From Escherichia coli (GTDB taxonomy: Bacteria > Pseudomonadota > Gammaproteobacteria > Enterobacterales > Enterobacteriaceae): DNA of 64,000 nucleotides. The stretch's first letter is position 1. Each line of letters opens with the position of its first letter. Under the pieces are notes generated by a model that was not told where the DNA came from, made no database searches, and worked only from the letters and a program-made list of their open reading frames with translations. Where the stretch lies: NCBI RefSeq assembly GCF_003334385.1, contig NZ_QOWN01000021.1. One strand, written 5' to 3'. Of this stretch, positions 12,931 to 16,789 are shown one piece after another. Position numbers and translations under genes: made by a program.

Positions 12931-12955
12931 GATAATGAAATTAATTATCGTTATC
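12931..12955. promoter_or_regulatory. Fur box in fepD/entS divergent promoter
   Basis: gataatgaaattaattatcgttatc closely resembles the Fur consensus (GATAATGATAATCATTATC) and sits between divergent fepD and entS starts. Confidence 0.65.
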
Positions 12956-13028: not shown

Positions 13029-14279
13029 ATGAATAAACAATCCTGGCTGCTTAACCTCAGCCTGTTGAAAACGCACCCGGCGTTTCGCGCAGTATTCCTC
13101 GCTCGTTTCATCTCAATTGTGTCTCTGGGTTTGCTCGGCGTCGCGGTGCCGGTGCAGATCCAGATGATGACACATTCCACCTGGCAGGTGGGGCTTTCGG
13201 TGACGCTGACCGGCGGCGCGATGTTTGTTGGCCTGATGGTCGGCGGTGTGCTGGCGGATCGCTATGAGCGCAAAAAAGTGATTTTGCTGGCGCGCGGCAC
13301 CTGTGGCATTGGCTTCATTGGACTGTGCCTTAATGCACTGCTGCCGGAGCCGTCATTGCTGGCAATCTATTTACTTGGTTTATGGGATGGTTTTTTCGCA
13401 TCGCTTGGCGTTACGGCGCTATTGGCGGCGACACCAGCACTGGTAGGGCGTGAAAACTTAATGCAGGCCGGGGCGATCACCATGTTGACCGTGCGTCTGG
13501 GGTCGGTGATTTCGCCCATGATTGGCGGTTTATTGCTGGCGACCGGTGGCGTAGCCTGGAACTACGGGCTGGCGGCGGCGGGCACGTTTATTACCTTGCT
13601 ACCGTTGTTAAGCCTTCCGGCGTTGCCACCGCCACCGCAGCCGCGTGAGCATCCGTTGAAATCATTACTGGCAGGATTTCGTTTTCTGCTTGCCAGCCCG
13701 CTGGTGGGCGGGATTGCGCTGCTGGGTGGTTTATTGACGATGGCGAGCGCGGTGCGGGTACTGTATCCGGCGCTGGCTGACAACTGGCAGATGTCAGCGG
13801 CACAGATTGGTTTTCTCTACGCGGCGATCCCGCTCGGCGCGGCTATTGGTGCGTTAACCAGCGGGAAGCTGGCACATAGTGCGCGACCAGGGTTATTGAT
13901 GCTGCTCTCCACGCTGGGATCGTTCCTCGCCATTGGTCTGTTTGGCCTGATGCCGATGTGGATTTTAGGCGTGGTTTGTCTGGCGCTGTTCGGCTGGTTG
14001 AGTGCGGTCAGCTCGTTGCTGCAATACACAATGCTGCAAACGCAAACCCCGGAAGCGATGTTAGGGCGGATTAACGGTTTGTGGACGGCGCAGAACGTGA
14101 CGGGCGATGCCATAGGCGCGGCGCTGCTGGGTGGTTTGGGCGCGATGATGACACCGGTTGCTTCCGCAAGCGCGAGCGGTTTTGGTTTGTTGATTATCGG
14201 CGTGTTGTTATTGCTGGTGCTGGTGGAGTTGCGACATTTTCGCCAGACGCCGCCGCAGGTGACAGCGTCCGACAGTTAA
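13029..14279 (+). CDS. entS: Enterobactin exporter EntS (MFS transporter)
   Basis: 416-aa multi-[32 protein letters not shown]... matching recalled EntS/YbdA. Confidence 0.93.
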
Positions 14280-14282
14280 TGC

Positions 14283-15239
14283 TTAAAACAGCGCCTTAAG
14301 CCTATCCAGCACTTGCATGGCGCTGTAGTAATCCAGACGGAACGTCTCGGTTCCCAGCGCATAAACCTGCTTGTTTTGTACTGCAGGCAGGTGCGCGAGC
14401 AGCGGATTAGCATAAATAGCATCGGCATCTTTCTGATCACCGGCGAACAGGAATAGTGACTCGCCATTTAACCCTGCAGCCAGATTTTCCCCACCAAGCT
14501 GAATGATGTCATGGCGTTTACCCTGACTTTGGCTGGCATTTAACCCTGCGGGTAACTTCGCCAGCGTAAAGCCGAGTTGTTCCAGCATCTGCCCTTGTGC
14601 TGATTCTGGCGTCCAGAGATTGGCACTGTGTGCAGCGGCAGTATAGACAATGGCAGTGACCGGCTGCGGCGGTAATTTGATTTGCTCTTTCGCCGCCGCC
14701 AGTTGCTTATCAAACTGCGCAATCCGCTCTGCCGCTTGTTTCTCATGCCCGGTAATTTCGCCAAGTTGCGTTAACAGCGACTGCCAGCTTTTGTCGTCGT
14801 AATTGATGATTAATGTCGGGGCGATGGTGGAAAGCTGATCATACAGTGCCAGCGCCGAATCCCCGCCGGTTGCGCTAATTAAAATCAGATCCGGCATTTG
14901 CGCGGCAACGGCTTCGGCGCTCGGTTCGCCGATATAGAGCCGTTGCAGTTTGCGTTCTTTCGCCACCTTGCTCCACTGGCGTAAAAAGCCCTGGTCATCC
15001 GCGACGCGGTTATTCGGCGTGGTCGCGCCGCTGGCGATCACCGGAGCATCAATCGCCAGCAGTGAGCCGGTCAGGGTGACGCTGGTGGAAACAATACGCT
15101 GCGGCTGGCTTTCCAGTGTATGTGTGCCACGGCTGTCAGTAATCTGACGCGGCCAGTCAGCGGCCTGAACTGCGGCTATTCCTGAAAGCAAAAGTCCTGT
15201 TAATAGAAGGGCGTTGCGGTAGAGCGGGGCGAGTCTCAC
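14283..15239 (-). CDS. fepB: Ferric enterobactin periplasmic binding protein FepB
   Basis: 318-aa [29 protein letters not shown] (signal peptide) ... matching FepB. Confidence 0.93.
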
Positions 15240-15304
15240 AAATCAGCTTCCTGTTATTAATAAGGTTAAGGGCGTAATGACAAATTCGACAAAGCGCACA
15301 ATCC

Positions 15305-15410
15305 GTCCCCTCGCCCCTTTGGGGAGAGGGTTAGGGTGAGGGGAACAGCCAGCACTGGTGCGAACATTAACCCTCACCCCAGCCCTCACCCTGGAAGGGA
15401 GAGGGGGCAG
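15305..15410. repeat. GC-rich boxC-like intergenic repeat, two partial inverted copies, within the fepB leader
   Basis: gtcccctcgcccctttggggagagggttagggtgagggg and downstream ccctcaccccagccctcaccctggaagggagagggggcag; reverse complement recurs at 22775..22820. Confidence 0.6.
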
Positions 15411-15565
15411 AACGGCGCAGGACATCACATTGCGCTTATGCGAATCCATCAATAATGCTTCTCATTTTCATTGTAACCACAACCAGATGCAACCCCGAGT
15501 TGCAGATTGCGTTACCTCAAGAGTTGACATAGTGCGCGTTTGCTTTTAGGTTAGCGACCGAAAAT

Positions 15566-15590
15566 ATAAATGATAATCATTATTAAAGCC
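15566..15590. promoter_or_regulatory. Fur box in fepB/entC divergent promoter
   Basis: aaatgataatcattattaaagc, near-consensus Fur box about 30 bp upstream of entC ATG. Confidence 0.7.
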
Positions 15591-15613
15591 TTTATCATTT
15601 TGTGGAGGATGAT

Positions 15614-16789
15614 ATGGATACGTCACTGGCTGAGGAAGTACAGCAGACCATGGCAACACTTGCGCCCAATCGCTTTTTCTTTATGTCGCCGTACCGCAGT
15701 TTTACGACGTCAGGATGTTTCGCCCGCTTCGATGAACCGGCTGTGAACGGGGATTCGCCCGACAGTCCCTTCCAGCAAAAACTCGCCGCGCTGTTTGCCG
15801 ATGCCAAAGCGCAGGGCATCAAAAATCCGGTGATGGTCGGGGCGATTCCCTTCGATCCACGTCAGCCTTCGTCGCTGTATATTCCTGAATCCTGGCAGTC
15901 GTTCTCCCGTCAGGAAAAACAAGCTTCCGCACGCCGTTTCACCCGCAGCCAGTCGCTGAATGTGGTGGAACGCCAGGCAATTCCGGAGCAAACCACGTTT
16001 GAACAGATGGTTGCCCGCGCCGCCGCACTTACCGCCACGCCGCAGGTCGACAAAGTGGTGTTGTCACGGTTGATTGATATCACCACTGACGCCGCCATTG
16101 ATAGTGGCGTATTGCTGGAACGGTTGATTGCGCAAAACCCGGTTAGTTACAACTTCCATGTTCCGCTGGCTGATGGTGGCGTCCTGCTGGGGGCCAGCCC
16201 GGAACTGCTGCTACGTAAAGACGGCGAGCGTTTTAGCTCCATTCCGTTAGCCGGTTCCGCGCGTCGTCAGCCGGATGAAGTGCTCGATCGCGAAGCAGGT
16301 AATCGTCTGCTGGCGTCAGAAAAAGATCGCCATGAACATGAACTGGTGACTCAGGCGATGAAAGAGGTACTGCGCGAACGCAGTAGTGAGTTACACGTTC
16401 CTTCTTCTCCACAGCTGATCACCACGCCGACGCTGTGGCATCTCGCAACTCCCTTTGAAGGTAAAGCGAATTCGCAAGAAAACGCACTGACTCTGGCCTG
16501 TCTGCTGCATCCGACCCCCGCGCTGAGCGGTTTCCCGCATCAGGCCGCGACCCAGGTTATTGCTGAACTGGAACCGTTCGACCGCGAACTGTTTGGCGGC
16601 ATTGTGGGTTGGTGTGACAGCGAAGGTAACGGCGAATGGGTGGTGACCATCCGCTGCGCGAAGCTGCGGGAAAATCAGGTGCGTCTGTTTGCCGGAGCGG
16701 GGATTGTGCCTGCGTCGTCACCGTTGGGTGAGTGGCGCGAAACAGGCGTCAAACTTTCTACCATGTTGAACGTTTTTGGATTGCATTAA
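15614..16789 (+). CDS. entC: Isochorismate synthase EntC
   Basis: 391 aa from [30 protein letters not shown] (ATG 15614, GGA-rich RBS upstream). Confidence 0.95.

Follow-up and report, generated by a model that had tools for sequence, protein, structure and literature searches.

The fepB–entC intergenic region

The DNA analysed is a 64,000-nucleotide stretch of Escherichia coli contig NZ_QOWN01000021.1 (hereafter the window), within which entS, fepB and entC mark the fepB–entC segment as part of the E. coli enterobactin cluster. The intergenic region between fepB and entC is identical to that of K-12 MG1655, and a window position is converted to the NC_000913.3 coordinate by adding 609,271, an offset that we checked against the published intergenic range (624,511–624,884) and against published repeat coordinates. 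The fepB–entC spacer measures 374 bp in the window, compared with 188 bp in ST131 and O157:H7. The features discussed below are collected in Table 1.

Table 1. Features of the fepB–entC region and of the related repeat copy after cstA, in window coordinates.
Feature	Position	Strand	Basis or remark
entS	13029–14279	+	ORF list
fepB coding sequence, GTG start	14283–15239	-	
Shine-Dalgarno/start-codon region and site of RyhB pairing (-20 to +5)	15235–15259	-	Outside the insertion, common to both alleles
69-aa ORF, TTG start, inside the insertion	15243–15452	-	ORF list
186-bp insertion in the fepB 5' UTR (long allele): both BoxC copies, spacer and outer arms	15267–15452	-	Anchored comparison with the ST131 allele
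Left outer arm, pairs with 15431–15454	15275–15298	.	GATGACAA...AAAAG.GCTC, common to other composite copies, with divergence
eco:5_BoxC, wider published member at TMECO 7	15297–15347 (reverse complement)		PMC2267715
BoxC/TMECO 7, type A, CCCTCGCCCCTTTGGGGAGAGGGTTAGGGTGAGGGG	15308–15343	+	MG1655 624,579–624,614; Table 1 of PMC4666352
26-nt spacer between the BoxC copies, tip of the predicted rod	15344–15369	.	Alignment and fold
eco:6_BoxC, wider published member at TMECO 8	15366–15417		PMC2267715
BoxC/TMECO 8, type B, CCCTCTCCCTTCCAGGGTGAGGGCTGGGGTGAGGGT, in reverse orientation to TMECO 7	15370–15405	-	MG1655 624,676–624,641, antisense; PMC4666352
Right outer arm; 5' strand of the predicted rod base in the mRNA	15431–15454	.	
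Fur box 1, fepB operator, AAAATGAGAAGCATTATT	15451–15468	-	PMC5020551; footprint ~15445–15475
fepB transcription start according to the literature (-217)	15456	-	PMC4666370; 7 nt past the conserved -10
Putative fepB promoter	15464–15492	-	-35 TTGCAT 15487–15492, 17-nt spacer, -10 GAAAAT 15464–15469
Putative entC promoter	15524–15552	+	-35 TTGACA 15524–15529, -10 TAGGTT 15547–15552
Fur box 2, entC operator, ATAAATGATAATCATTAT	15566–15583	+	PMC5020551; footprint ~15560–15608
entC	starts 15614	+	
Solo BoxC copy eco:7_BoxC, cstA–ybdD interval, followed by a REP	22777–22827	+	PMC2267715

The inverted repeats upstream of fepB belong to the BoxC family

Two pairs of inverted arms were found upstream of the fepB start codon. 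The inner arms (15302–15342 and 15371–15411) are 41 nt long, 76% complementary and 28 nt apart, and the outer arms are 24 nt long and 71% complementary. The inner pair corresponds to the two inverted GC-rich repeats that an earlier note, made from the letters of the window, had described at this place as boxC-like and as recurring downstream of cstA. The 22-mer CCCTCACCCTAACCCTCTCCCC is found at 15321–15342 on the minus strand without mismatch and at 22782–22803 on the plus strand with one mismatch, against an expectation of 0.00 from 100 shuffles; these matches are beyond chance.

All three copies in the window are identical to published BoxC members (eco:5, eco:6 and eco:7) in the family file of Petrillo et al. 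2008, which holds 22 BoxC members in K-12 (PMC2267715). At the narrower scale of the TMECO motif, positions 15308–15343 are identical to TMECO 7, and the reverse complement of 15370–15405 is identical to TMECO 8; TMECO (Holder et al. 2015) is the family earlier named BoxC or PIT, for potential intrastrand triplex (PMC4666352). There is thus no remaining doubt that the repeats in the fepB leader and the copy after cstA are BoxC elements, on both counts as the earlier note had proposed.

The TMECO motif spans ~34–37 nt and consists of a C-rich block, a loop, a G-rich block, a second loop and a second G-rich block, or of the complement of this arrangement; type A copies have TTA as the second loop and type B copies a CCG-like second loop (PMC4666352). 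TMECO 7 and TMECO 8 form one of five inverted type A plus type B pairs in MG1655, and the supplementary table of the same study puts both between fepB and entC, "5' of entC/E/B/A/H" (PMC4666352). A genome-wide comparison of the repeat copies, also proposed in the earlier note, was run with blastn and revealed dispersed BoxC copies at 19 places in the K-12 MG1655 record, with a median of 16 per genome; the published TMECO count per K-12 genome is 23 (PMC4666352). Every copy that we inspected was intergenic.

Consensus TMECO oligonucleotides adopt an intrastrand triplex in vitro, as seen by CD and NMR, and in vivo footprinting gave no sign of a stable TMECO triplex (PMC4666352). In the summary that this study gives of earlier PIT work, the element had no promoter or terminator activity and left RNA polymerase unaffected. 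The study further reports that TMECO positions show no trend toward a general regulatory role, that the motif is not associated with transposons, phages or plasmids, and that TMECO loci are far more variable among E. coli strains than control intergenic regions. Where two motifs form a palindromic pair, strains were found in which both are missing, or in which each has been partly deleted and one stem-loop remains (PMC4666352).

fepB has its own promoter and Fur operator and a leader of about 217 nt

The positions of the two Fur boxes rest on published footprints. Table 3 of PMC2189734 lists the DNase footprints from Brickman et al. 1990 as 623,939–623,969 (fepB) and 624,054–624,102 (entC) of NC_000913.2; these were converted here with an assumed genome-version offset of 777–778 bp. 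Fur box 2 controls entCEBAH and lies downstream of the entC +1, -10 and -35 (PMC5020551). Both boxes were also picked up independently, as an inverted pair, in our repeat search. A search with the Fur consensus 19-mer at up to three mismatches missed both of them and found only the fepD–entS box; by count, the fepB–entC boxes differ from the 19-mer at at least four positions.

A promoter and terminator scan returned sites only inside Fur box 2, missing the fepB and entC promoters, and no terminator-like site; the two promoters were instead placed from conservation and the literature. Among 55 aligned short-spacer species, CTTGCATC and ATGAAAATGAGAAGCATTA show conservation of 100% or close to it, and TTGACA and TAGGTT of entC are likewise conserved, as is Fur box 2. 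The fepB -35 and -10 hexamers are putative assignments made from such conserved blocks. For the length of the fepB UTR we rely on Wang et al. 2015, whose construct pJXW036 contains the entire fepB 5' UTR, -217 to +24 (Table S1, PMC4666370). Brickman 1990 and Elkins & Earhart 1989 reportedly describe a fepB leader of ~219 nt and start sites 103 bp apart. In the long allele, the 217-nt leader runs from 15456 down to 15240 and includes both BoxC copies.

The Fur box near 15566–15590 had previously been read as belonging to fepB, with the promoter lying there and a leader of ~330 nt. A Fur box is indeed present at that place, and the leader is indeed long enough to hold both repeats, but the two parts of the reading that concern fepB itself did not stand. 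A sigma-70-like site on the minus strand (15606 to 15579; TCCACA, 16-nt spacer, AATAAT) could give a minor start near 15572. Nevertheless, we consider a fepB promoter at this position very improbable: the footprint over Fur box 2 is assigned to the entC operator, a separate footprinted operator at Fur box 1 serves fepB, the UTR used experimentally is 217 nt long (PMC4666370), and the block formed by the -35, the -10 and Fur box 1 (15451–15492) is conserved in the 55 species. The Fur box beside entC is not to be taken as the fepB operator.

The BoxC pair is part of a 186-bp insertion immediately downstream of the fepB transcription start

We compared the window with the ST131 allele between anchors and found that the UTR differs in length by exactly 186. 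On the mRNA strand, the short allele reads ...GAAAATGAGAAGCATTA followed directly by ACTTCATTAATAACAGGAAGCTGATTT and the GTG start codon. In the long allele, ...GAAAATGAGAAGCATTA is followed by the insert, TTGATGG...CGCCCTTA, and then by ACCTTATTAATAACAGG.... The trinucleotide TTA flanks the insert at both ends (15453–15455, and 15267–15269 within the insert itself) and is present once in the empty site, so the boundary of the insert is ambiguous by 3 nt. The insertion lies between Fur box 1 and the ribosome-binding site and starts 2–5 nt past the fepB transcription start; the two bases that complete the 18-nt Fur box 1 are the first two of the insert. The fepB leader of the short allele is ~31 nt long, and in short-allele strains and other species the conserved promoter/Fur block is only ~31–45 nt from the fepB start codon. 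Combining the 217-nt UTR, the exact indel and the published placement of the repeats puts both BoxC copies inside the fepB 5' UTR, as one block that follows the start site.

Among 5,426 complete E. coli genomes, the long intergenic region is covered over at least 80% of its length in 2,755 and the insert itself in 2,721, so that ~51% carry the long allele; the remaining genomes match only from window position 15453 onward. ST131 and O157:H7 lack the insertion. The long allele is very uniform, with at least 99% identity in most genomes. Its high frequency and uniformity are compatible with neutrality plus clonal structure, and also with selection.

We surveyed all 80 Enterobacteriaceae species representatives in which fepB adjoins entC. 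A spacer of 187–188 bp was present in 48 of them, including E. albertii, the GTDB representative of E. coli, Citrobacter, Enterobacter and Klebsiella, and the insertion was absent from 79, whose leader has stayed at ~31 nt. E. whittamii was the only representative with BoxC-derived DNA between fepB and entC; its allele has the same junctions and outer arms and an internal deletion of 86 bp that leaves a single hairpin. Because 48 of the 80 species share the 187–188-bp spacer and E. whittamii alone has insert-derived DNA, the comparison indicates that the short form, with a leader of ~31 nt, is ancestral and that the long form is a gain. Within E. coli, the polymorphism may stem from a single gain that recombination spread, or from a gain and later precise loss. 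Conservation together with the gene across species, the mark of a conserved cis-regulatory leader RNA such as a riboswitch, attenuator or thermometer, was not found.

In our reading, the outer-stem changes of the E. whittamii allele are compatible with pairing: G-U has become A-U, C-G has become U-G, and one mismatch has become G-C. This hints that the potential to form a hairpin may have been kept, and a palindrome in the DNA would give the same pattern.

Similar composite copies are dispersed in the genome

In genomes that lack the insert at fepB, the best matches to it cover window positions 15277–15418 at 83–87% identity and lie at alx–sstT, gcvP–ygfF and yijF–gldA. Aligned with one another, the four copies have in common the left flank, the type A box, a conserved 26-nt spacer and the type B box; similarity in the right flank is weak. 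Indels of 1 nt occur in the paralogous copies, and blastn did not recover the right outer arm at the other loci. The opposite order, type B, spacer and type A, occurs at K-12 trmL–lldD and yagE–ISEc19. In our reading of covariation along the rod that the transcribed fepB insert is predicted to form, the long allele is near-invariant within E. coli, and the four paralogous copies show mismatches in the outer blocks and not clean compensatory changes.

All BoxC loci that we checked are polymorphic within E. coli. At the other K-12 BoxC loci checked, the repeats were present in 1,912, 1,201, 3,026 and 3,745 of the 5,426 genomes (22–69%). At alx–sstT, some strains carry a 76-bp internal collapse resembling the fepB allele of E. 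whittamii, and the collapsed and replaced variants examined at this locus included no clean empty site. At gcvP–ygfF, the filled/empty comparison with O157:H7, which is without ygfF, showed a difference over a larger region. Neither of these two loci yielded another clean filled/empty comparison for BoxC composites. The 3-bp TTA flank, seen at the single fepB locus, is weak evidence for transposition.

The transcribed insertion is predicted to fold into a rod that leaves the initiation region clear

Folding of the leader RNA, a check suggested in the earlier note, gave -98.8 kcal/mol, compared with -75.9 ± 5 kcal/mol for shuffled sequences (z = -4.6). For the whole UTR the predicted energy is -93.2 kcal/mol and for its two halves taken apart -66 kcal/mol, a gain of ~27 kcal/mol. 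Thermodynamic prediction on the RNA from +1 through the first 60 nt of coding sequence yielded a single rod from nt +6 to +179; five 5'-terminal nucleotides are unpaired, and 38 nt separate the rod from the start codon. The repeats are predicted to pair into a long stem, as had been supposed from their inverted order. In the growing transcript, the local BoxC hairpins are predicted to form first.

The rod is predicted to be self-contained and clear of the Shine-Dalgarno and start region. The Shine-Dalgarno sequence has a mean unpaired probability of 0.33 in long and short alleles alike, and the region from -20 to +5 has one of 0.39 in the long and 0.48 in the short allele. This is the region at which RyhB pairs to repress fepB translation, as established with compensatory mutations by Wang et al. 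2015 (PMC4666370). The predicted structure gave no sign that the ribosome-binding site is occluded or exposed, or that a terminator is formed. A permissive Rfam 15 scan of positions 14800–16000 found no match that reached threshold; the best, to mir-188, scored 28.6 bits against a gathering threshold of 72, and the sub-threshold matches, to microRNA precursors and other families, were generic long-hairpin or chance matches.

The 69-aa ORF is most likely an artefact of the repeat

An ORF of 69 aa lies in the insertion in the sense orientation of fepB. It had been dismissed as a product of the repeat, and our results agree that it is most likely artefactual, as it is repeat-borne, has no Shine-Dalgarno sequence and finds no match in NCBIfam. 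We rejected the coding reading because no protein family was matched and because the frame is broken in E. whittamii and in the paralogous copies. A translated upstream ORF that couples translation into fepB would fit its orientation and its stop codon at 15243–15245, 3 nt before the fepB GTG at 15239. We give this possibility almost no weight, given that the TTG start lies 4 nt from the 5' end of the mRNA and is buried in the base of the predicted rod, that the whole ORF belongs to a repeat insertion absent from half of E. coli, and that its frame is cut by the 86-nt E. whittamii deletion, which is not a multiple of three, and by the 1-nt indels in the paralogous copies.

Discussion

The BoxC pair in the fepB leader is most likely a composite dispersed repeat and not a dedicated regulatory element of fepB. 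The unit consists of a type A and a type B BoxC element, inverted around the 26-nt spacer and bounded by weaker outer arms, 186 bp in total. Its insertion 2–5 nt downstream of the fepB transcription start extended a leader of ~31 nt to 217 nt in K-12 and in the other E. coli strains that carry it. Once transcribed, the imperfect palindrome would fold on itself as a rod between +6 and +179, and the promoter, the Fur operator, the Shine-Dalgarno sequence and the RyhB site would be left as they were before. The insertion was probably tolerated because the rod folds on itself and the control sites are unchanged. We favour with fair confidence the view that a self-folding dispersed repeat landed in a short fepB leader and has persisted there as a near-neutral passenger. 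Its effect on fepB expression is probably small, and at most modest. Any effect would most plausibly come about through an altered mRNA half-life caused by the 5'-proximal hairpin, or through cleavage of the duplex by RNase III.

The suggestion of the earlier note that the stem could affect translation or stability leads to a different reading, in which the BoxC rod has been co-opted for post-transcriptional control, whether by 5'-end-dependent decay (RppH/RNase E), as an RNase III substrate, or by slowing access of the ribosome or of RyhB/Hfq. In each of these cases, long- and short-allele strains would yield different amounts of FepB per transcript. The rod is indeed very stable, its predicted start is 5 nt from the 5' end, and it contains long near-perfect duplex segments. 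In E. coli, mRNAs can be stabilised by stem-loops at the 5' terminus, and long duplexes are cleaved by RNase III. The frequency and near-invariance of the long allele can also be counted in favour of co-option, as can the pairing-compatible changes in E. whittamii and the existing control of fepB by RyhB at an adjacent site (PMC4666370). Against this, the predicted accessibility of the Shine-Dalgarno sequence and start codon is unchanged, with the rod lying clear of both, and the block has no counterpart in about half of E. coli or in 79 of the 80 species representatives, all of which have the same Fur- and RyhB-regulated system. Five unpaired nucleotides at the 5' end may suffice for 5'-end sensing, as work on ompA-type leaders indicates. 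As summarised in PMC4666352, BoxC/PIT elements lack promoter and terminator activity, and their positions show no regulatory trend. We regard co-option as unlikely. Our literature search found no functional study of the fepB leader, and Brickman 1990 or Elkins & Earhart 1989 may include leader deletions.

Somewhat less probable again is that the 186-bp composite represents a lineage-specific gain, in which a 5' rod of ~170 nt alters fepB decay, the level of FepB or sensitivity to RyhB. If this were true, the insertion of a repeat would have created a natural regulatory polymorphism in siderophore uptake that separates K-12 from ST131 and O157:H7.

The fepB pair is a listed member of BoxC/PIT/TMECO (Bergler 1992, Bachellier; Hoyne & Maher 2000/2002; PMC4666352; PMC2267715), with TMECO 7 listed as type A mm and TMECO 8 as type B (PMC4666352), and it shares the intergenic location and strain variability of that family. 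The reduction of the E. whittamii allele to a single hairpin is an instance of the 'palindrome effect' described for the family. The BoxC tables give the pair only as fepB–entC; its location in the fepB 5' UTR and the 186-bp block are added here.

BIMEs are similar in that GC-rich palindromic units of two subtypes are inverted around conserved linkers, lie in intergenic regions, are transcribed within neighbouring mRNAs and are present or absent according to strain. They belong to another sequence family, and the fepB pair has no match to the REP consensus. REP and BIME elements also differ from BoxC in that they are generally found 3' of genes and that some are documented to influence mRNA stability or to bind gyrase and IHF; to our knowledge, BoxC has no such role.

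MITEs of the ERIC/IRU kind share with the fepB unit a length of <200 bp, a long RNA hairpin, the occurrence of several similar copies in a genome, presence/absence polymorphism and insertion into a transcribed leader; the imperfect inverted arms at its ends and the short direct repeat that flanks it at fepB may be further points of likeness. Unlike MITEs, however, the fepB unit has weak terminal arms (71%) and a flanking repeat at one locus only, and solo BoxC units greatly outnumber composites. We know of no cognate transposase for the BoxC composite. Stem-loops of the ompA type that stabilise mRNAs at the 5' end, and leaders processed by RNase III, resemble the insert in form only, through a stable 5'-proximal hairpin and a long duplex; in contrast to these leaders, the fepB insert is not conserved with its gene.

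Published work had already described the BoxC family, its type A plus type B pair at fepB–entC, how variable such loci are, and the long leader of fepB. What we add is incremental: a 186-bp block whose junction lies right after the transcription start, its frequency of ~51%, an ancestral leader of 31 nt, and an initiation region predicted to be untouched by the rod. The K-12 fepB–entC region serves as a model of Fur-regulated divergent promoters and as an expression cassette; 186 bp of it are a strain-specific repeat that the ancestral control region lacked. With natural leader alleles of 31 nt and 217 nt at hand, whether a BoxC pair in a 5' UTR affects an mRNA can be tested directly.

Structural variants of the BoxC pairs

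The chief variation that we observed inside the long fepB allele of E. coli is carried by strains RM6927 (L089) and 10_253 (L090), in which 6 bp (ACCCTA) are deleted within the type A BoxC. This variant further differs by one substitution close to where the insert joins the fepB-side (3') sequence. A larger rearrangement was found in Escherichia whittamii (L008 1212-1501), where the fepB leader contains the insertion as in E. coli, with identical junctions, and an 86-bp internal deletion leaves a single hairpin in a spacer of 288 bp. The substitutions that distinguish the outer stem of E. whittamii from that of K-12 are compatible with pairing.

At alx-sstT, a 76-bp deletion bounded by GGGAGAGGG repeats reduces the BoxC A+B pair to a single hairpin in some strains (21AR0707, locus L095, compared with L004 1130-1400). 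A third strain class carries a different, longer sequence at this locus (718-bp span). In the cstA-ybdD spacer, a REP-like palindrome lies 3' of the solo BoxC copy, thus placing two distinct repeat families side by side.

Transcription signals and transcript ends around fepB

A sigma-70-like site overlapping the entC operator, Fur box 2, is directed at fepB. This putative promoter could give rise to a minor fepB leader of ~330 nt. At the other end of the gene, the stop codons of entS and fepB are convergent with only 3 nt between them, and the 3' ends of the two transcripts must therefore overlap; the pair is included as a convergent 'excludon' in the list of PMC12288877.

The top match to the 19-bp Fur consensus in the entire window (GATAATGAAATTAATTATC, 3 mismatches) is directly upstream of entS and is taken to be within the fepD-entS divergent promoter region.

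Other repeats in the fepB-entC spacer

Among the spacers of the species representatives, we also observed that the fepB-entC control region has acquired other small repeats in other species. The elements in Klebsiella grimontii (L039) and Salmonella enterica subsp. arizonae (L074) are presumably ERIC-like, as judged from the ERIC primer sequences, and three further genera contain other additional DNA.

Features of the window and fepB-entC spacers of other species
Feature	Window position	Strand	Spacer length	Description
Fur consensus match	12931-12949
entS and fepB stop codons	14279-14283
Sigma-70-like site	15579-15606	minus		TCCACA, 16-nt spacer, AATAAT; inside Fur box 2
REP-like palindrome	22846-22879			GCCGGATAAGGCGTTCACGCCGCATCCGGC; after BoxC copy, between cstA and ybdD
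K. grimontii			311 bp	ERIC/IRU-like element between the two -35 boxes
S. enterica subsp. arizonae			308 bp	ERIC-like element in entC leader, 3' of Fur box 2
Kluyvera			232 bp	Other additional DNA
Pseudocitrobacter			247 bp	Other additional DNA
Intestinirhabdus			344 bp	Other additional DNA
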